From Verrucomicrobiota bacterium (GTDB taxonomy: Bacteria > Verrucomicrobiota > Verrucomicrobiia > Chthoniobacterales > UBA10450), in contig JBKPDP010000052.1 in NCBI GenBank assembly GCA_046727935.1, positions 6,174 to 70,173 on the forward strand: DNA of 64,000 nucleotides, read 5' to 3'. A model generated the notes under the pieces. That model was not told the DNA's origin and ran no database searches. It was given only the letters and a program-made list of their open reading frames with translations. This document shows positions 34,484 to 54,692 of this stretch, one piece after another. Position 1 is the first letter of the stretch, and every line of letters begins with the position of its first letter. The translations under genes and the position numbers were made by a program.

Positions 34484-34629
34484 ATCCGCATCACGCGTGG
34501 TTCTGCCCGTTTTAATCTTGACGAGCTGCCGAGATTTTTTCAAAAATCGCCGTCGTTCAACGGATCTGAATCAGGCGGAGACCTTTTGCCCCGCCAGGTT
34601 CTTCGCCTCTTCCGGACCCGCAACCTCGA

Positions 34630-36028
34630 GTGCAACCAAGCGGGGAAAAGAAAGTAAGAACCATGGATCCATTGATTCAGCTCAAAAATCCCACGCGAAT
34701 ATTCGCCGCCGTGCTTCTGCTGGATTGTTTTGGTCTCGTGTCCGCCGCGCGAGCAGTGAATCCGCCGCCGGACGGCGGTTATCTTGGGGGCAACACAGCA
34801 GAAGGGCAAAATGCCCTTTTGAGCCTCACCACCGGCACATACAATACGGCAGTCGGGTTGTTTTCACTCAGGAGTAATACCGAAGGCGCCTTTAATACAG
34901 CCATTGGTGCTGGAACCCTCATCCTCAACGCGGCGGAGAACAATACCGCCACTGGCGCTGCCGCACTTTTCAGCAACACTACCGCGTTGGCAACACGGCC
35001 AATGGCGCTTTTGCGCTCTTGAACAACACTACCGGCGACGGCAACAACGCCTCTGGCGCCTATGCGCTAAGCGACAATACGACTGGGAATTACAACACTG
35101 CCGTCGGTGCCTTTGCGCTTGAGTCCAATGAGAGCGGAGCGTTGAACTCTGCTTTTGGTAACAGCGCGCTCAATTTCAATACTAGCGGGAGTGAAAACAC
35201 CGCCCTGGGCGCGGGTGCGCTCGCGTTCAATCAAAACGGAAGCAACAACACGGCTGTAGGTGCCGGCGCGCTGTTTCACAACCTCACCGGGAGCGACCAG
35301 ACAGCCGTCGGTCACCGAGCGCTGGAGAGTAGCACCGCGAGTGGACAATTCTGTTTCGGGAACACCGCGGTGGGGTCGCTTGCGCTCGCAGACAACACAG
35401 CTGGTTGCAGCAACACGGCTATTGGCGGTGCTTCACTAGGTAGCAACACCAGTGGCAGCAGCAACGTTGCGGTAGGCTTATTAGCCGGCAACAATGTCAC
35501 CACGGCGAGTAACGTTATTTGTATCGGCACTTCGGTCGGAGGCGCGAACGTGAGTGACAGCTGCTATATCGACAACATTTGGAATCAACCGGGGGGATCG
35601 CAAGCTGTCTATGTGAATTCAGATGGCAAACTCGGAGCCCAAGTGTCTTCACGGCGTTTTAAGGACGAGATCAAGCCAGTGGATAAGGCCAGCGAAGCCA
35701 TCTACGCACTCAAACCGGTGAGCTTCCGTTATAAGGCGAAAATTGAACCGACGCGTCCGCGCGGTTTCGGCCTCATCGCCGAGGATGTGCAAAACGTAAA
35801 CCCCGACCTTGTGATGTGCGATGCGGACGGCAAACCTTACACCGTGCGCTACGACGCGGTGAACGCGATGTTACTCAACGAGTTCCTCAAAGAGCACAAG
35901 AAGGTCGGGGGAAAAACATGCAAGTTCTCACGGTGCAGCTCAAAGAGCAGGCGGCGCAAATCCAGAAAGTAAGCGAGCAAGCTGAGAGGAACGAGCTTGC
36001 GGCGCTGATAGTTAGCAATAGTCGATAG
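34630..36028 (+). pseudogene. Frameshifted paralogue of the secreted NTAxG-repeat / S74-domain fibre proteins
   Basis: Three frames must be joined. ORF 34630-35022 covers the signal-like N-terminus and the first repeats. A shift near 34987 leads into ORF 35019-35972. A second shift at the GGGGGAAAAA run (about 35906-35915) leads into the coiled-coil tail ending at 36028. The S74 segment SSRRFKDEIKPVDKASEAIYALKPVSFRYK is present. The ATG and promoter hexamers of the intact copies are absent. Confidence 0.75.
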
Positions 36029-44156: not shown

Positions 44157-45539
44157 TTACGGATTGATTACTATTTGTGGTGCGGGCTTGTTCATTTCGA
44201 TTTCGGTTTTCAACTTCTGGATTTGCGCGGCCTGCTCTTTGAACTGCGCCGTCAAAACCTCCATCCCTTTTTGTTGCTGGGCAACCGTTGATTTCAACTC
44301 AGTGATCGTCGCTTGTTGCGCTTGGATTCTTTTGTGTTCTTTAAGGAACTCGTTGAGCAACATCGCGTTGATCTGGTCGTAGCGGACTGTGTAGATTTCG
44401 CCGTTATTGTCGCGCGCTACTAAATCCGGATTCACCTCCGCGACTTCCTCGGCGATCAAACCAAATTGCCGCGGGCTGTTCTTGTAGTTCTTGTAGCGAA
44501 AAGTCACCGGCTTAAGCGAAAGGAGCGCTTCGCTGGCTTTATCCATTGGCTGGATCTCTTCCTTAAACCGCCTTGAGGAGGCGATCGTTCCGAGCTTGCC
44601 GCTTGAGTCGATCGCGACGACCATCGCGTCCGGGGCTATTATCGCGCTGAAGATGTTGCCGATGTAGCAGCTGTTATCGAAGTTCGCGCCTGGGAGTCCG
44701 ATAGCAATAACGTTATTGGCCGTCGTGACACTGGCACCGGCATTAGCGCCTAAGGCCGTATTGCCGTTGCCGGTGGTGTTGGCAAGGAGCGCAGCGGCAC
44801 CCATGGCCGTATTGTTCTGGCCGGTGGTGTTGTTGTAAAGCGCAATATCCCCGATCGCTGTGTTGGAACCTCCGGTGCTGTTGCTAAAGAGCGCGTCCTC
44901 GCCAGTGGCCGTATTATCGGCCCCGGTGCTATTGCTGTGGAGCGCGTCAGCGCCGATGGCCGTGTTGACCCCGCCCTCGGTGTTGCCATTGAGTGCGCCC
45001 TTACCGACAGCCGTGTTGCCGGTGCCCACCGTGTTTAACGCCAGTGCGCCCGCACCGAACGCGCTATTCTCTTCGCCAGTCGTGTTGTTAAAGAGCGCTT
45101 CGTCCCCGGTGGCCGTGTTGTTATCACCTTCGGTGTTTTTAAAGAGCGCAGTATGCCCATTGGCCGTGTTGGCGCTCCCAGTGGTGTTGCTAAAAAGGGC
45201 GAAGGCGCCATTGGCCGTGTTGAAGCTACCGGTAGCATTGCTTAAAAGCGCCCCGGCGCCAGTGGCCGTATTTTGGTCTGCGGTGTTGGCGAGGAGCGTC
45301 CCGGCGCCAGTGGCAGTATTGAAGTTGCCTTCGGCGTTGCTCAGGAGTGAGAACACGCCAACAGCTGTATTATATGTGCCGCTGGTGAGACTAAAAAGAG
45401 CACTTTGCCCTTCTGCCGTGTTGCCACCGGGGTAGCCGCCGTCCGGAGCCGGGACAACAGCTTGGGCCAGGGGCAAAAGCCCGAAGCACCCGAGCGCAAA
45501 CAGAATGATTAATGTGAATGGAATGTTTCGATTTTTCAT
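44157..45539 (-). CDS. Secreted fibre-like protein: signal peptide, about 20 tandem 14-residue NTAxGxxALxxNTxG repeats, peptidase S74 intramolecular-chaperone domain and a C-terminal coiled coil
   Basis: 460 aa from the ATG at 45539. The N-terminus is MKNRNIPFTLIILFALGCFGLLPLAQA. The S74-like segment is SSRRFKEEIQPMDKASEALLSLKPVTFRYK...FGLIAEEVAEVNPDLV...YTVRYDQINAMLLNEFLKEH. Heptad-like sequence follows, up to the stop codon. Confidence 0.85.
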   Translation of the reverse strand: MKNRNIPFTLIILFALGCFGLLPLAQAVVPAPDGGYPGGNTAEGQSALFSLTSGTYNTAVGVFSLLSNAEGNFNTATGAGTLLANTADQNTATGAGALLSNATGSFNTANGAFALFSNTTGSANTANGHTALFKNTEGDNNTATGDEALFNNTTGEENSAFGAGALALNTVGTGNTAVGKGALNGNTEGGVNTAIGADALHSNSTGADNTATGEDALFSNSTGGSNTAIGDIALYNNTTGQNNTAMGAAALLANTTGNGNTALGANAGASVTTANNVIAIGLPGANFDNSCYIGNIFSAIIAPDAMVVAIDSSGKLGTIASSRRFKEEIQPMDKASEALLSLKPVTFRYKNYKNSPRQFGLIAEEVAEVNPDLVARDNNGEIYTVRYDQINAMLLNEFLKEHKRIQAQQATITELKSTVAQQQKGMEVLTAQFKEQAAQIQKLKTEIEMNKPAPQIVINP

Positions 45540-45545
45540 AAGCTG

Positions 45546-45574
45546 AATACGGGTGGAGATCGGCAGTTGTTTCA
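45546..45574 (-). promoter_or_regulatory. Candidate ECF-type promoter TGAAAC-N17-CGTATT, 6 nt upstream of the fibre-1 ATG
   Basis: The minus strand reads TGAAAC AACTGCCGATCTCCACC CGTATT CAGCTT ATG. The hexamers and spacing are identical at 47529-47557. Confidence 0.5.
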
Positions 45575-45686
45575 AAGAATCGAAAAAATTTGGTGCTCTT
45601 TTTGGGAGTGCGGCGCCGCTGCGCCGCTTTTCAATGAGCTGTCGGCAGTGAGCGATGCCACGCAGGCAGGATTGGTCGCGTCACTT

Positions 45687-45870
45687 GAGCGCCAAAGGCG
45701 CGTTCTCATATTAGCCTGGGGCGTCGCCCCAGGAATCCGATAGTATAGCTAACCAAGCGCTGAAGGCCCAAGTCAGTGGAACGCGCTTTCAGCGCTTATG
45801 CCTTTGGGATTCCATGAATCCTGGGGCGCCGCCCCAGGCTGGCGGGGTGAATGCTGCGCCTTTGGGGCTA
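45687..45870. repeat. Nested palindromic, MITE-like element in the fibre-2/fibre-1 intergenic region
   Basis: The outer arms are GCGCCAAAGGCGCG...CCTGGGGCGTCGCCCCAGG and CCTGGGGCGCCGCCCCAGG...GCGCCTTTGGGG. The centre AGCGCTGAAGG...CTTTCAGCGCT is itself palindromic. No ORF in it is credible. Confidence 0.5.
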
Positions 45871-46110
45871 AACACATGCACGCAACGCCTGCCCGTAGTG
45901 CTGCAGCGTTGGAGGCGCAAGGCTCCACCTTCGCATGCTACGTGCCCCAAACTCCGTGTTCATCTTGACAAAGATTGCGATTCAAGTCGGACACAAGTCC
46001 TCTTCGTTTCTCTCTGTCAAAGCTCTCTGGAAGGCGTTTCAAGGAGGGGCGCCTTCCCTGGCTCGCCGTAGCCTTGGCGTAGGCGGCCAAACCGCCGCTG
46101 CTTGCGGCTG

Positions 46111-46136
46111 TAGCCGGGGTTCGATGACCCCGGCTA
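46111..46136. repeat. Strong hairpin TAGCCGGGG-N8-CCCCGGCTA just 3' of the fibre-2 stop
   Basis: It has a 9-bp perfect stem and no following T-run on the minus strand. It may be a REP-like or RNA-stabilising hairpin. Confidence 0.5.
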
Positions 46137-46154
46137 TCACGCCTCAGGAATGCT

Positions 46155-47522
46155 TTACGGAGTTTCGAGAACAACTTTTGTAGTCGGGTTGCTCATCTCC
46201 ACCTGGGCGCTCAGCTTTTGGATTTGCGCCGTCTGTTCTTTGAGTTGAGCGCTCAAGATTTGGATTTCCTCCTGTTGCCGCGCGCTGACCATTTCGAAAT
46301 CGCGCTTCAACTCTGTGATCGTCCCTTGCTGGTTCTCAATCATGCTCTCTTGCGCCTCGACTTTCTGATGTTGTTTGAGAAACTCGTTAAGCAACATCGC
46401 GTTTACCTGGTCATAACGCACGCTGTAGGTTTTCCCCTCGTTGTCGCGCACGACGAGGTCTGGATCCACCTGTTCCACCTCTTCCGCCACAAGCCCAAAC
46501 TGCGATCTGCCGACGGGATCAATTTCTTTCTTGTACCGGAAGCTTACCGGTTTAAGTGCCAGGATTACTTCGCTAGCTTTGTCCATCGGTTTAATGTCTT
46601 CTTTAAACCGTCGGGAGGAGGTAGTCGTACCGAGTTTACCGACGCCATTAACGAAAACTGGAGTGCCTCCGGAAGACGTTGCACCAAAAATCTGACCGAT
46701 ATAGCAGCTGTTGCTCACGTCTTCACCACTGGCACGGATAGCAATGACGTTATCGGCCGTATGGATGCCAATACCGGCTTGATATCCTAAGACCGTGTTG
46801 CCGCTGCCGGTGGTGTTTTGAGAAAGTGCAGAATCACCGACGGCGGTATTGAGGCTGCCGCTGGTATTGACAGGCATAGCTTGAAACCCCAGGGCCGTGT
46901 TGCCGCTGCCATCGGCGTTGCTAACGAGCGCGTCAACGCCGGTTGCCGTGTTGGAGTGGCCGGTAGTGTTCAACAGGAGCGCACTGTCGCCGATGGCCGT
47001 GTTGTAGTTGTCGGTATTGAAGTAGAGAGCGTCATAACCGATGGCTGTGTTGCTAATGCCCGTGGTGTTGCGGTTGAGCGCAATAAAACCGGTGGCCGTG
47101 TTGTGGGAGCCGGTGGTGTTGCTAAAGAGCGCTTGGTCACCGGTGGCTGTATTGAAGTTGCCGATGGTGTTGCCAAAGAGGGCGAACGCTCCATCGGCCG
47201 TGTTGTGTTCGCCGATGGTATTGTTTAAAAGCGCCCCTGCGCCAGTCGCCGTATTTTGGTTCGCGGTGTTGATAAGGAGCGTCCCGGCGCCGATGGCAGT
47301 ATTGAAGTTGCCTTCTGCGTTGCTCCGGAGAGAAAACAGGCCGACGGCCGTATTGTATGTGCCGCTGGTCAGGCTAAAAAGAGCACTTTGTCCTTCTGCC
47401 GTATTGCCTCCCGGGTAGCCTCCGTCCGGAGCCGGGACAACTGCTTGCGCTATTGGAGAAAGCGTAAGCGAGGCAAGTGCAAACAGGATGATTGTTGTGA
47501 ATGGGATATATCGATTTTTCAT
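46155..47522 (-). CDS. Secreted fibre-like protein, paralogue of 44157-45539 (NTAxG repeats, S74 chaperone domain, longer coiled coil)
   Basis: 455 aa from the ATG at 47522. The N-terminus is MKNRYIPFTTIILFALASLTLSPIAQA. The first 60 or so mature residues are nearly identical to fibre 1. The S74-like segment is SSRRFKEDIKPMDKASEVILALKPVSFRYK. Confidence 0.85.
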   Translation of the reverse strand: MKNRYIPFTTIILFALASLTLSPIAQAVVPAPDGGYPGGNTAEGQSALFSLTSGTYNTAVGLFSLRSNAEGNFNTAIGAGTLLINTANQNTATGAGALLNNTIGEHNTADGAFALFGNTIGNFNTATGDQALFSNTTGSHNTATGFIALNRNTTGISNTAIGYDALYFNTDNYNTAIGDSALLLNTTGHSNTATGVDALVSNADGSGNTALGFQAMPVNTSGSLNTAVGDSALSQNTTGSGNTVLGYQAGIGIHTADNVIAIRASGEDVSNSCYIGQIFGATSSGGTPVFVNGVGKLGTTTSSRRFKEDIKPMDKASEVILALKPVSFRYKKEIDPVGRSQFGLVAEEVEQVDPDLVVRDNEGKTYSVRYDQVNAMLLNEFLKQHQKVEAQESMIENQQGTITELKRDFEMVSARQQEEIQILSAQLKEQTAQIQKLSAQVEMSNPTTKVVLETP

Positions 47523-47528
47523 AAGCTG

Positions 47529-47557
47529 AATACGGATGCGGAGGGGCACGTGTTTCA
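47529..47557 (-). promoter_or_regulatory. Candidate ECF-type promoter TGAAAC-N17-CGTATT, 6 nt upstream of the fibre-2 ATG
   Basis: The minus strand reads TGAAAC ACGTGCCCCTCCGCATC CGTATT CAGCTT ATG. The spacer differs from copy 1 at 7 of 17 positions, while the hexamers are identical. Confidence 0.5.
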
Positions 47558-47617
47558 AACAATCGAAAAAATCTTTCGTGACCCTGGCTCCGGCGCGGCG
47601 TATGATGGCTTTGAGGC

Positions 47618-48292
47618 ATGAATCTATCACCAGGGCGCGCTGCATCGTCTTTGGCGACGCGGCGCAGCCTATTGAGTCGCCTCAAGGAATCGGATGCCCA
47701 GGAGAGTTGGCGACAGTTTTTCGATACCTACTGGCGATTGATCTATACGACCGCGCTCAACGCCGGGTTGACCGATTGGGAGGCACAGGAGGTCGTGCAG
47801 GAGACGGTCCTCACCGTCGCCAGGAAGATTAAATCCTTCCGCTACGATCCTGTTGTCGGCTCATTTAAGGGCTGGCTATTGACCATCGTGCGTTGGCGCA
47901 TCGCGGACCAATTCCGCAAACGCCAGCAGCAGATCCAGCCACTGGGTGCGCGCCGGGGAACAGAGACCGAGGGTACGGCAACAGCCGAGCGCGTTGCTGA
48001 TCCGGGAGCGATCGATCTTGACGTCGTGTGGGAGGAGGAATGGCAGCGCACACTGTTCGCTGCGGCGTTGGCGCGTGTGAAATGTCAGGCTAACGCGCGG
48101 CATTATCAGATGTTCGATCTCCATGCCGTGAAACAGTGGCCCGTGCAGAAGGTGGCGCAGACGCTCGGCGTGAGTGCCGGCCAGGTGCGCCTGGCGAAAC
48201 ACAGAATTACCGCGTTGATGCGCCGAGAAGTTGCTCGCCTCGAAAAGGAAGAGGAGAAGCGATGGGGCTTGGTGAAAGCGATGGCTCACTAG
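47618..48292 (+). CDS. ECF-family RNA polymerase sigma factor
   Basis: 224 aa. The sigma-2 region is WRQFFDTYWRLIYTTALNAGLTDWEAQEVVQETVLTVARKI...GWLLTIVRWRIADQFRK. The sigma-4 helix-turn-helix is WPVQKVAQTLGVSAGQVRLAKHRI. Confidence 0.9.
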   Translation: MNLSPGRAASSLATRRSLLSRLKESDAQESWRQFFDTYWRLIYTTALNAGLTDWEAQEVVQETVLTVARKIKSFRYDPVVGSFKGWLLTIVRWRIADQFRKRQQQIQPLGARRGTETEGTATAERVADPGAIDLDVVWEEEWQRTLFAAALARVKCQANARHYQMFDLHAVKQWPVQKVAQTLGVSAGQVRLAKHRITALMRREVARLEKEEEKRWGLVKAMAH

Positions 48293-50973
48293 GTCGAGCA
48301 GACGGGATGCGCGCCCGCCTTGGGCAGATTATGGCACGGCAGGCGAACGCGACACAACCAGGGCTGGATACCCCTCATATTCCAGACCTCGAATTACTGC
48401 GTTGTATCGGCCATGGCAGCTATGGCGAGGTGTGGCTGGCGCGAAACATCCTAGCCAGTTACCGGGCGGTTAAGATCGTTAATCGAAAAGCATTTCGTGA
48501 CGAACAGACGTTTGAGAGAGAATTTTTGGGTCTCCAGCGGTTCGAACCCGTATCGCGAGAGCACGATGGTTTTGTGGCAATCCTGCACGTGGGCCGCAAT
48601 CGCGCGGACGGTTTTTTCTACTATGTCATGGAACTGGCCGACGATGATTCGAACGGCGACCAGATTAACCCTGACAAGTACGTCCCGAAAACATTAAGCA
48701 GAGAGCTGGCCCGGTGCGGACGGCTGGCGGTCAAGCACTCCGCGCAATTGGGCTGGTCGCTGAGCGAAGCGCTAGCGGAGCTGCACCGTCGCGGGTTAGT
48801 GCATCGCGACATCAAGCCATCGAACATCATCTTCGTCAAAGGCCACTCCAAACTGGCGGACATTGGGCTGGTAGCGAAGGCTGGCGAAAAGGCGCGTCTT
48901 GGCACAGAGGGTTACATTCCGCCTGAGGGTCCTGGGGCGCCTCAAGCCGATCTCTACAGTCTGGGCAAGGTTCTTTACGAAGCGAGCACCGGCACGGATC
49001 GACTCGACTATCCGAATTTGCCACGGAACCTCGACACAATGGCCGAGCGCGAGGCGTTTCTTAAGCTCAACTCCATCATTCTGAAGGCGTGCGACAATGA
49101 TGTTCGCAAACGCTACCAGACGGCCACGGAGATTAGCGAAGACCTGACGCGGCTGGGCGTTGGGGGACCTGTTCAGACGGTTCGGAGCAAGTTTCTGCGC
49201 AATCCGGTCACCGTCTTCACTGCAGTGTTGCTCGGTGCTTTGGCTTTGGCGTTCCCGTTCTACTGGCTCCGAAATCCGGCAACCAGCTTAATTCCTGAGA
49301 AGAGCGTCGCCGTTTTGCCCTTCGACAATCTCAGCGACGAAAAACAAAACGCCTATTTCGCCGCCGGCGTTCAAGATGAAATTCTGTCGAACCTTGCCAG
49401 AATCGCCGAGCTCAAGGTGATCAGTCGCACTTCCGCGAACCTTTATAAGAGCGGGAAGCCGCGTAACTCGCGTGAGATTGGGCAACAACTCGGCGTTGCT
49501 CATCTTTTGGAAGGCAGCGTCCAGCGAATCGGAAATCGGCTCCGAGTCAACGCTCAACTGATCGACACGCGGAACGACACGCATACATGGGCGCAAACCT
49601 ACGATCGGGATGTGTCGGACCTCTTTGCAATCCAAAGCGAAATCGCGCAGACGATCGCCGGCCAGCTGTACGCGAAAATCTCACCGGCGGAAAAACTGGC
49701 CATCGAGCGACCCCCGACTGCCGATCTTACTGCGTTCGATCTCTACACGCGCGCAAAAGATCTTTCACTACGGTCGCCCTTTACCAGTCGTGGAAAAAAG
49801 GATCTGCTGCGCGCGGCTGATCTGTTGAACCAGGCGGTCGCGCGAGACCCGGCGTTTTTTCAGGCGTATTGCCAGCTCACCTTCACTCATGACTACCTTT
49901 ACTTCTTTGATCACGACCGGACGCCGGCGCGCCTGGCGCTAGCAGAGGCGGCTATTCAGGCGGCTTTTCGCCTTCGGCCCGACGCAGGTGAGGCACACCT
50001 TGCACGCGCGGAGCATCTTTATCGAGGATACCTCGACTATGATGGAGCGTTGGCTGAACTGGAAATTGCTCGTCAAACTTTACCCAATGATGCGCGCATA
50101 TCCCAACTGACGGGTTCCATCCAGCGTCGTCGAGGACGTTGGGAAGAGTCGATACGTAACTTGGAGCGTGCAGTCGAGCTGGATCCCCGCAACATTCATA
50201 CGCTACAGCAGATTGCAGACAGCTACGGATTTCTTCGGCGCTATGCCGAAGCAAAATCAGTGTATGATCGCGCGCTGGCCATCGCGCCCGACGATGTCGA
50301 GACAAGAGTAGGACGTGCGGATAGGGAACTGGATTGGAAAGCTGATACCACGCCGTTGCATCAATTGGTCGATTCAGTTCGGGCTACCAGTCCCGCCGCT
50401 ATCTCGGATATCGCCGATAGCTGGTTCATTTGCGCGCTAGCCGAGCGCGATGCGGCTGCTGCAAAGGAGGCCTTGATGGCCTCAGGCCAAAACACCTCAC
50501 CTAACAACGAGGCTGTTCAGTTCAATCGCCCCTTTGTGGAAGGCATTATCGCTCGTATGACGAAGGATGACGACAAAGCGCGATCCGCTTTCACAGCCGC
50601 TCGCGCGGAACAGGAGAAAATCGTCCAAGCCCAGCCGAACTACGGACCGCCGATGGTCGTGCTCGGTTTGATCGACGCCGCTCTTGGACGGAAAGAAGAA
50701 GCGCTGCGCGAAGGTCGCCGCGCGGTCGAGCTTCTTCCGGTGGAGAAAGATGCGATCAATGGTCCGCTCATGATCGAAGACTTGGCGATCATCGCTGCTT
50801 GGTTGGGTGACAGAGATCTCGCCTGCGAACAGCTTGGCGTCGCTATTCGCTACCCGGGCCATTTGAGCTATGGCGAGCTAAAACTCTTGCCCTTTTGGGA
50901 TCCGCTGCGCCGCGATCCGCGTTTCGAACAAATCGTCGCCTCTCTCGCGCCTAAGGGAATTAACCACGAATGA
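48262..50973 (+). CDS. Transmembrane Ser/Thr protein kinase with an extracytoplasmic domain and TPR repeats
   Basis: Kinase motifs are IGHGSYGEVW, AVKIV, HRDIKPSNIIF, LADIGL and GTEGYIPPE. One TM helix is present (VTVFTAVLLGALALAFPFYWL). A domain starting SVAVLPFDNLSDEKQNAYFAAGVQDEILSNL follows, then TPR-like repeats. The start was set at the ATG at 48262, which has a GAGGAG 5 nt upstream. The ATG at 48307 is an alternative. Confidence 0.9.
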   Translation: MGLGESDGSLGRADGMRARLGQIMARQANATQPGLDTPHIPDLELLRCIGHGSYGEVWLARNILASYRAVKIVNRKAFRDEQTFEREFLGLQRFEPVSREHDGFVAILHVGRNRADGFFYYVMELADDDSNGDQINPDKYVPKTLSRELARCGRLAVKHSAQLGWSLSEALAELHRRGLVHRDIKPSNIIFVKGHSKLADIGLVAKAGEKARLGTEGYIPPEGPGAPQADLYSLGKVLYEASTGTDRLDYPNLPRNLDTMAEREAFLKLNSIILKACDNDVRKRYQTATEISEDLTRLGVGGPVQTVRSKFLRNPVTVFTAVLLGALALAFPFYWLRNPATSLIPEKSVAVLPFDNLSDEKQNAYFAAGVQDEILSNLARIAELKVISRTSANLYKSGKPRNSREIGQQLGVAHLLEGSVQRIGNRLRVNAQLIDTRNDTHTWAQTYDRDVSDLFAIQSEIAQTIAGQLYAKISPAEKLAIERPPTADLTAFDLYTRAKDLSLRSPFTSRGKKDLLRAADLLNQAVARDPAFFQAYCQLTFTHDYLYFFDHDRTPARLALAEAAIQAAFRLRPDAGEAHLARAEHLYRGYLDYDGALAELEIARQTLPNDARISQLTGSIQRRRGRWEESIRNLERAVELDPRNIHTLQQIADSYGFLRRYAEAKSVYDRALAIAPDDVETRVGRADRELDWKADTTPLHQLVDSVRATSPAAISDIADSWFICALAERDAAAAKEALMASGQNTSPNNEAVQFNRPFVEGIIARMTKDDDKARSAFTAARAEQEKIVQAQPNYGPPMVVLGLIDAALGRKEEALREGRRAVELLPVEKDAINGPLMIEDLAIIAAWLGDRDLACEQLGVAIRYPGHLSYGELKLLPFWDPLRRDPRFEQIVASLAPKGINHE

Positions 50974-53829: not shown

Positions 53830-53902
53830 TGGGTCGGCCGGGACTCGAACCCGGAACCAACGCCTTAAAAGGGCGCTGCTCTACCGATTGAGCTACCGAC
53901 CC
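53830..53902 (-). tRNA. tRNA-Lys (anticodon UUU)
   Basis: Hand-folded 73-nt cloverleaf. The acceptor stem is GGGTCGG/CCGACCC, the D stem is GCTC/GAGC, and the anticodon stem is GCGCC/GGCGT with loop CTTTTAA. The variable loop is TGGTT, and the T arm is CCGGG-TTCGAGT-CCCGG. The discriminator base is A. CCA is not encoded. Confidence 0.93.
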
Positions 53903-54009: not shown

Positions 54010-54692
54010 TCTAAAACCGCAAGCAGATCGCGCAGCGAATTCTTTGGTCGATCCAATCGAAAGATCGACAAACCAGCGGCGCTCGCAGCTTCCCAATCCC
54101 GTTTTGGATCATCGCCAACGTGAAGAACCTCGTTCGGTTTCAAATCGATTAGGGTCAACGCGCGCCGGAAAATTTCCGGATCAGGCTTGTCAGCCCCTAT
54201 CTCGCTGGAGATGAAAATGTGCGTAAAAAACTTCGAGATAGCGAGGTGCTGAAGAATGAGTCGCAAACGCCCATCGAAATTTGAGATTACGGCGAGCTGA
54301 AAACGGGGCCGCAATTGCTCCAAAACGCCGGGAACGTCCGGGTAAAGTTCCCAAACACCTGGTTCGGCAAAATGGTCGTAGGCGATCTCAAAAAAATTAT
54401 CGCGATCAAATTCGCTCAATGAAGGCGCGACTTGATCGAGGACAAGATCGACAAGCTCGCGCCACCAACCTTTGTCATCGTTTTCACGCGGCCCATCAAT
54501 CGCCGCGCGCGACGACATTTTCTTCCAAGCTGAGTAAAACGCGCCATCGAGGTGATGTGCATCGAGCGTAAGGCCCACCTCAGTGCCCACAAGTGCGTAG
54601 TGGCGACCGACGGTTCCGCTCAAATAAAACAGTGTTCCGACGGCGTCGAAAAAGACCGCTTTAATTGGTTTCTCTCTGTTTTTTGTCACCAT
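54003..54692 (-). CDS. HAD-superfamily hydrolase (subfamily IA-like)
   Basis: Motif I is AVFFDAVGTLF, and motif IV is in the region HVGDDPKRDWEAA. The start was moved to the ATG at 54692. Confidence 0.85.
   Translation of the reverse strand: MVTKNREKPIKAVFFDAVGTLFYLSGTVGRHYALVGTEVGLTLDAHHLDGAFYSAWKKMSSRAAIDGPRENDDKGWWRELVDLVLDQVAPSLSEFDRDNFFEIAYDHFAEPGVWELYPDVPGVLEQLRPRFQLAVISNFDGRLRLILQHLAISKFFTHIFISSEIGADKPDPEIFRRALTLIDLKPNEVLHVGDDPKRDWEAASAAGLSIFRLDRPKNSLRDLLAVLEL

Follow-up and report, generated by a model that had tools for sequence, protein, structure and literature searches.

We analyzed a 64,000-nucleotide stretch of a Verrucomicrobiota genome (GenBank assembly GCA_046727935.1, contig JBKPDP010000052.1, positions 6,174 to 70,173 of the forward strand), referred to here as the window, in which two genes for secreted proteins of the phage tail-fiber type are each preceded by the same promoter-like block. 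The block consists of TGAAAC, a 17-nt spacer, and CGTATT, and it ends 6 nt before the start codon. A gene for an extracytoplasmic function (ECF) sigma factor (47618 to 48292) lies beside the second fiber gene and is transcribed away from it. We conclude that each copy of the block is probably a target promoter of this neighboring sigma factor, and that the resulting fiber mRNAs would be leaderless. A first-pass annotation, made from the window sequence without database searches, had pointed to an ECF-type promoter at these two genes, and the comparative data presented below back that interpretation. The regulatory prediction is well supported but unsurprising, combining things of known kinds: leaderless transcripts, a kinase-linked sigma factor, and an ECF promoter that serves a divergent gene. 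Our analysis covered the 64-kb window of this genome and flanks of approximately 10 kb at other loci.

The twin TGAAAC-N17-CGTATT-CAGCTT-ATG sites that the first-pass annotation had placed at 45546 to 45574 and 47529 to 47557 are both present on the minus strand. In copy 1, the -35 hexamer TGAAAC (45574 to 45569) is followed by the spacer AACTGCCGATCTCCACC (45568 to 45552), the -10 hexamer CGTATT (45551 to 45546), and a stretch comprising the discriminator CAGCTT and the start codon (45545 to 45537, with the ATG at 45539 to 45537). Directly upstream of the -35 hexamer is a T-rich block, ATTTTTTCGATTCTT (45589 to 45575, minus strand), which resembles an UP element and may act as one, by analogy with described leaderless ECF promoters (PMC7776599). 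Copy 2, read from the sequence in the same way, has TGAAAC at 47557 to 47552, the spacer ACGTGCCCCTCCGCATC at 47551 to 47535, CGTATT at 47534 to 47529, and CAGCTT plus the ATG of fiber gene 2 at 47528 to 47520 (ATG at 47522 to 47520). Its T-rich block, ATTTTTTCGATTGTT (47572 to 47558), lies upstream of the -35 hexamer, between two back-to-back promoters. Homology between the two copies has an abrupt upstream limit, about 53 nt from the ATG. Their spacers are unlike at 7 of 17 positions, compared to 6 differences in the 51 positions outside the spacer between -55 and +13 (Fisher p = 0.013), so the earlier claim that the spacers have diverged more than their flanks holds, as a modest excess. When one mismatch was tolerated, TGAAAC-N17-CGTATT matched twice in the 64 kb, against an expectation of 0.23, and 3 of 100 shuffled sequences also reached two matches. 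The relaxed pattern GAAAC-N16/17-CGT occurred at background level, with 10 matches versus 6.8 expected. One of these 10 is the match at 54118, which the first-pass annotation had listed (54117 to 54142) as the only other one with correct spacing; the site exists, but it is noise produced by chance. The strong evidence for the block comes from other genomes rather than from the window alone.

A search with the fiber proteins, taking one genome per species, identified 76 loci, all of them from Candidatus Udaeobacter or other Verrucomicrobia metagenome-assembled genomes (MAGs) from soil, in which several fiber paralogs per genome are common. The window itself therefore probably derives from a Udaeobacter-type soil bacterium. 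In these fiber-anchored loci and the window together (847 kb), the pattern TGAAAC-N16-18-CGTA matched six times: at the two window sites, once each in loci L004 and L012, and twice in L024. All six matches have a 17-nt spacer and stand 6 nt ahead of a fiber ATG. Homologs of the window sigma factor (tblastn, 81 to 84% identity) are encoded in 3 of the 76 loci, and these are exactly the three that carry the motif; in each, the sigma gene diverges from the motif-bearing gene and is followed by a kinase gene. Counted by gene, 6 of the 156 fiber-type gene starts in this set have the motif, all beside this kind of sigma gene, which we call type A.

Searching instead with the sigma protein, we obtained 2183 homologs, the best 120 of which are at least 79% identical to the query, and we retrieved the neighborhoods of eight. 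Each of these sigma-anchored loci contains the sigma gene, the kinase gene, and a divergent gene for a secreted protein, and between one and three copies of the motif are present wherever DNA could be obtained (two in L118, three in L120). Altogether, TGAAAC-N17-CGTA occurs 23 times (16 non-redundant sites) in 951 kb of Udaeobacter-type DNA, well above the 1.3 occurrences expected from Markov simulations. All 23 sites have the 17-nt spacer, are separated from a start codon by 6 nt, and adjoin an ortholog of the sigma gene at 47618; none was found elsewhere in this DNA. The 16 non-redundant sites combine an AAC-type -35 element with a CGT-type -10 element, and their spacing falls within the range of 14 to 18 nt reported for ECF promoters (PMC5758882, PMC7776599). 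Tandem fiber genes separated by long gaps have their own copy of the motif each (the window, L024, L118, and L120), and closely packed downstream genes have Shine-Dalgarno (SD)-like sites instead. In one locus (L122, 3791 to 5716, minus strand), the motif stands before a gene for a 641-amino-acid (aa) DUF5122 beta-propeller protein and not before a fiber gene. Here the promoter persists, still 6 nt from the start codon, and so does a homologous start of the signal peptide; the cargo has been replaced. Because the promoter outlives the exchange of its cargo, the element is apparently kept for its own function rather than as a by-product of fiber homology. A metagenome-wide DNA scan for ATTNNTTGAAACA-N16-CCGTATT returned 40 matches, which is the chance level, all on low-GC contigs lacking fiber, sigma, or kinase homologs, and it added no regulon members or orthologs.

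We compared the block across nine distinct loci by pairwise identity. Identity is complete (100%) in the two hexamers and the start codon, 86% in the 6-nt discriminator, 66% in the spacer, and 65% in the 25-nt T-rich block upstream of the -35 hexamer; beyond 25 nt upstream of that hexamer it drops to 26%, the random level. For comparison, four-fold degenerate sites in the adjacent sigma genes are 56% identical. The -35 hexamer shows no variation across the 16 non-redundant sites. The A that follows TGAAAC and the TT of CGTATT, which lay outside the search pattern, are invariant nonetheless. Such a profile shows that the motif is under purifying selection.

The same profile bears on the idea that the block is a functionless relic of duplication, left where paralogs share their 5' flank. 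The two window genes are indeed paralogs, with more than 90% identity over their first approximately 100 codons, and the contrast between spacer and flank within the window is modest. Had duplication been the only cause, the 60 nt would be conserved uniformly in related genomes, which is not what we found. The block is kept in at least nine loci of different genomes in which neutral sites are at most 56% identical and the flanks are randomized, the hexamers and both distances are invariant, and sigma protein identities of 80 to 86% speak against recent horizontal copies. We regard a duplication relic as an extremely improbable explanation.

Conservation beyond the hexamers, in the T-rich block, spacer, and discriminator, could instead suggest that the block serves mainly or additionally as a transcription-factor site or another DNA-level element, with the true promoter elsewhere and a longer 5' untranslated region. 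An imperfect palindrome, TTTCAATTCTTTGAAA, overlies the -35 hexamer in some loci and would suit such a role, but it is not conserved (in the window, L124, and L129), and we rejected a palindromic operator formed by the imperfect TTTCAA/TTGAAA inverted repeat for this reason. Further upstream there is no conservation that could represent another promoter, and a longer leader would find no SD site before the start codon. Two blocks with AAC and CGT cores, a fixed 17 nt apart and at a fixed distance from the start codon, have the look of a sigma site. A DNA-level element of this kind is therefore improbable. We judged it even less probable that the block acts in RNA, within a transcript that begins upstream, where it would form a structured leader or a translational element. 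Unusual DNA conservation in the first five codons (ATGAAAAATCGA; 74% identity) might hint at such a function; however, an RNAalifold consensus of 15 sequences yielded a stem of only 4 bp (-0.55 kcal/mol) without covariation, no Rfam family matched the block, and the upstream region has no conservation to mark a promoter. A structured RNA or riboswitch was rejected on these grounds.

The position of the block relative to the start codon suggests where transcription begins. Leaderless ECF promoters have been described that have UP elements and a pyrimidine at -1 and among which initiation on A is enriched; relative to the flipped -10 base, their transcription start site lies at -1/+1 (PMC7776599). 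With CGTATT at -12 to -7, the +1 position falls on the A of the ATG (45539 for fiber gene 1 and 47522 for fiber gene 2), and a T occupies -1. By the counting used in that study, the A of the ATG is at -1/+1 with either base of CGTA, T or A, as the flipped one. We therefore predict the A of the ATG as the transcription start site, and a start on this base would make the fiber mRNAs leaderless. Only CAGCTT or TAGCTT separates the -10 hexamer from the start codon and there is no SD site, in agreement with the 6-nt gap described in the first-pass annotation. The start codon at the leaderless position is ATG at 15 of the 16 sites and GTG in L129. Gene callers misplace some of these starts, 36 nt downstream in L120 (5688 versus the called 5652) and upstream in L129.

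The leaderless arrangement does not reflect a lineage-wide habit. Among 430 long open reading frames of these loci, SD-like tetramers peak at -17 to -10, no general TANNNT peak stands against the start codons, and the sole positional peak of CGTA is formed by the six motif sites. We rejected a general leaderless tendency on this basis; the leaderless design appears to be gene-specific here.

The sigma gene (47618 to 48292, plus strand) encodes a 224-aa protein matching Sigma70_r2 and TIGR02937. Its ATG lies 60 nt beyond the -35 hexamer of copy 2, the distance given in the first-pass annotation. A sigma70-like promoter, GTGACC-N17-TATGAT (47578 to 47606, plus strand), ends 11 nt before this ATG, and each of the 12 sigma copies that we examined has a TATGAT, TATAAT, or TATCAT box 10 to 11 nt ahead of its ATG. 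Arranged back to back, the ECF promoter and the sigma70-like promoter are separated by 20 nt in the window and by 245 to 319 nt in other loci. On the sigma strand we found no ECF motif, and we rejected autoregulation of the sigma gene through this motif in favor of the conserved sigma70-like box. The sigma factor thus appears not to be autoregulated, which fits post-translational control of its activity. This would explain why no promoter is available for such groups from surveys based on autoregulation (PMC7826278).

Overlapping the end of the sigma gene is the start of a gene (48262 to 50973, plus strand) for a 903-aa receptor Ser/Thr kinase with a Hanks domain, one transmembrane helix (approximately residues 315 to 336), and an extracytoplasmic portion with TolB_N/FlgO-like and TPR domains. 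The catalytic HRDIKPSN motif of the kinase is intact. In the sigma protein, the acidic sigma2.2 patch is kept: alignment to Mycobacterium tuberculosis SigE places the ExxExxQE motif there, and E55, E58, Q61, and E62 are retained in 118 to 120 of the 120 best sigma homologs. The linker between sigma2 and sigma4 is otherwise variable, but T120 and T122 are near-invariant in it (119 and 117 of 120 homologs, respectively). These two residues are candidate phosphorylation sites, recalling the linker phosphosites of EcfK (PMC13147305), and should be taken only as a lead. One metagenomic contig (L117, 2365 to 5750 and 6001 to 7096) carries a tandem duplication of the type A sigma-kinase module.

The main remaining rival to reading by the adjacent sigma factor is that the block is a genuine promoter read by another ECF or a housekeeping sigma factor, the neighboring sigma-kinase pair being a bystander or having another role. 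These genomes encode several ECF families, the co-occurrence of motif and sigma gene could lack a functional basis and simply mirror synteny kept among orthologous loci, and TTGAAA over the -35 hexamer fits the sigma70 consensus TTGACA at 5 of 6 positions, 18 nt from CGTATT. However, position 2 of CGTATT is not the A that a sigma70-type -10 element needs, and a sigma70 scan does not call the site, which led us to reject TTGAAA-N18-CGTATT as a sigma70 promoter. As for other ECF factors, the motif is absent from about 150 fiber genes that lack a type A sigma gene, including those next to other sigma-kinase pairs, and it stays beside the sigma gene after the cargo has been replaced.

Those other pairs are informative in themselves. 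About one in three fiber loci has a kinase paralog no more than 5 kb away, and besides type A these kinase genes are preceded by two further ECF families, the divergent type B (L074, 2681 to 3451, minus strand; also L027, L001, L040, L044, and L009) and the ECF43-like type C (L069, 2289 to 2870, minus strand; also L026, L047, and L019). Type C matches PF07638/TIGR02999 at 1e-51 to 1e-66 and has the QTTA signature. The fiber genes adjacent to types B and C have distinct motifs of their own. Beside type B, homologous fiber genes starting with MKNR... are preceded by GGAAC-N15-CGTT and an approximately 32-nt leader that contains an SD-like GAAAGGAA (approximately 3680 to 3740 in L074, 2700 to 2760 in L001, and 3690 to 3750 in L027); beside type C, the element is GATGATCA...TTGTTTAT and the leader is approximately 55 nt long (L026, approximately 2540 to 2645; L047; L019). 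Both look like candidate private promoters of the respective sigma factors, and only type A appears to be leaderless among the three families. That each sigma family has a private element on its neighboring fiber gene supports the wiring of each sigma factor to its neighbor. On balance, we consider it unlikely that a sigma factor other than type A reads the block.

Comparison with known systems clarifies which kind of ECF factor this is. The first-pass annotation had likened the block to the Bacillus SigW promoter, TGAAAC-N16-CGTA, whose TGAAAC and CGTA are ECF-type elements (PMC5758882). The likeness to Bacillus subtilis sigmaW promoters extends to the identical -35 hexamer, the CGTA core common to the -10 elements, and T-rich DNA beside the -35 hexamer. 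It ends at the spacing, which is 17 nt here, and at the protein: sigmaW belongs to ECF30, and the window sigma factor is not a SigW ortholog (NF007223, 29.5 bits versus a cutoff of 209). Furthermore, the sigma gene here is followed by a gene for a Ser/Thr kinase and not for an RsiW-type anti-sigma factor, it appears not to be autoregulated, and it belongs to another phylum.

The ECF43 pairs EcfP-PknT of Vibrio parahaemolyticus and EcfK-PknS of Xanthomonas citri are closer in organization. As in those pairs, the sigma factor is co-encoded with a transmembrane Hanks kinase that has a large extracytoplasmic domain, and there is no anti-sigma factor; this arrangement is conserved at all the type A loci. 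The conserved linker Thr residues are a further likeness to EcfK, which is phosphorylated between sigma2 and sigma4 (PMC13147305). In ECF43 proteins, however, the DxxD acidic motif of sigma2.2 is replaced by uncharged residues and a phospho-acceptor Thr, as QTTA or STTA (PMC13147305, PMC8999054). Type A has no such phospho-switch, and since it keeps the ExxExxQE acidic patch and gives no PF07638/TIGR02999 match, we rejected membership in ECF43. The predicted leaderless ECF promoters of Todor et al. (2020; PMC7776599) share with the block the predicted +1 on the start-codon A, the pyrimidine at -1, the UP-like A/T tract, and the position on a gene divergent from the sigma gene. Those promoters are from Actinobacteria, in which leaderless mRNAs are common, whereas the genes studied here are from Verrucomicrobia that otherwise have SD-like sites. 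Finally, the Planctomycetes-type groups ECF59, ECF61, ECF62, and ECF217 belong to the same PVC (Planctomycetes-Verrucomicrobia-Chlamydiae) superphylum and likewise have a neighboring Ser/Thr kinase and no anti-sigma factor; in the parts of the literature consulted for these groups, no published target promoter was found (PMC7826278, PMC8999054).

In the mechanism we favor, the sigma gene would be transcribed from its own sigma70-like promoter without autoregulation, and the co-transcribed transmembrane kinase would presumably switch the activity of the sigma factor when its TolB_N/TPR domain senses something outside the cytoplasm. RNA polymerase containing the active sigma factor would then bind TGAAAC and CGTATT, 17 nt apart, with the T-rich, UP-like tract upstream. 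The first transcribed base would be the A of the ATG, separated from the -10 hexamer by 6 nt, and the leaderless fiber mRNAs would be translated without an SD site. The products would be Sec-exported, trimeric proteins of the phage tail-fiber type with a C-terminal S74 chaperone, and fiber genes that are spaced apart would each be served by their own copy of the promoter.

Several points weigh against this mechanism. The link between kinase and sigma factor is drawn only from the adjacency of their genes, and with the acidic sigma2.2 patch kept, the established phospho-activation of ECF43 factors does not appear to be directly applicable. Because the hexamers never vary, there is no covariation between sigma factor and promoter to support the predicted specificity. 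The spacer and T-rich block exceed neutral conservation, which may indicate an additional regulator or a selectivity element. In addition, the orthologous gene in L129 (5952) and L130 starts with GTG, a poor codon for leaderless translation by Escherichia coli rules.

The predicted targets in the window are fiber gene 1 (44157 to 45539, minus strand; 460 aa) and fiber gene 2 (46155 to 47522, minus strand; 455 aa), whose products are 60% identical. A typical signal peptide, MKNRNIPFTLIILFALGCFGLLPLAQA|VVPAPDGGYP, stands at the start of both proteins and is followed by NTAxG repeats, a C-terminal Peptidase_S74 intramolecular-chaperone domain (PF13884, 3e-14 and 5e-14), and a coiled-coil tail. 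The placement of the chaperone domain after a repetitive fiber region is that of S74 proteins. Phage tail-fiber and tailspike PHROGs also match the fiber proteins (best 1e-45), while a search of PDB with them returned no sequence relative.

Between the two fiber genes, and on their strand, the Rfam Acido-Lenti-1 RNA gives a full-length but sub-threshold match (45688 to 45733, minus strand; 32.8 bits versus a gathering threshold of 37; local E = 8.5e-5). The 19-nt palindrome of this match, CCTGGGGCGRCGCCCCAGG, has a second copy about 100 nt away (45826 to 45844), and no Acido-Lenti-1 match at gathering level was found in the related loci. A GC-rich hairpin, AGCCGGGG-TCATCGAA-CCCCGGCT, lies at 46112 to 46135 (minus strand), 20 nt past the stop codon of fiber gene 2 and without a U-tail; a relative of its sequence recurs in L040, and it is only a candidate terminator. 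At L129 (3850 to 4425) and L130 (873 to 1448), a DUF3455 gene sits between the tandem fiber genes, and we found no remnant of one in the corresponding gap of the window (45540 to 46154).

The window contains a third fiber paralog (34664 to 36019, plus strand), which the first-pass annotation had described as frameshifted and as having lost both its ATG and the hexamers. It does have at least two frameshifts, reflecting either a pseudogene or sequencing error, but an ATG is present at 34664. We also rejected loss of the motif. The gene belongs to a separate subfamily (N-terminus MDPLIQLK.../MNPLIQLK) that never had these hexamers and that shares an SD-type leader in L033, L050, L058, L067, L070, and L075; in the window, the leader sequence GAAAGGAAG is mutated to GAAAGTAAG. 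Another class of upstream sequence, TTTT..TCTCGACAAG-N17/18-(C)GAAACT-N9-ATG, is conserved before the fiber ATGs of L003, L020, L034, L039, L043, L057, L065, and L071. It resembles a sigma70 promoter and also nearly touches the start codon, and a similar element (34505 to 34550) precedes the third window paralog by about 110 nt. Elsewhere in the window is a tRNA gene (53830 to 53902, minus strand; Rfam tRNA, 75.7 bits).

The uncultured Candidatus Udaeobacter ranks among the most abundant bacteria in soil, and to our knowledge essentially no gene regulation has been described for it. The locus gives a concrete, predicted assignment of sigma factor, promoter, and target for a kinase-linked ECF factor, and it supplies a candidate promoter for non-autoregulated sigma factors of the kind to which ECF surveys have assigned none. 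It also draws attention to the errors that gene callers make at the starts of predicted leaderless genes, as in L120 and L129. The wider pattern is one of receptor-kinase/sigma pairs beside an expanded family of secreted, phage fiber-like proteins. One possible but tentative interpretation is that Udaeobacter-type genomes contain modular cassettes, each composed of a sigma factor, a paralogous TPR receptor kinase, and one to three fiber genes with a promoter private to that sigma factor, so that external cues choose the fibers. Such cassettes may involve at least three unrelated sigma families, namely type A, the divergent type B, and the ECF43-like type C. If this interpretation is true, type A would be a kinase-controlled ECF factor that keeps its acidic core-binding patch, and because the patch is kept, it would be switched by something other than the ECF43 phospho-patch, for example by phosphorylation of T120/T122 in the linker. 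The cell could then pick among many alternative surface fibers in response to distinct external cues.

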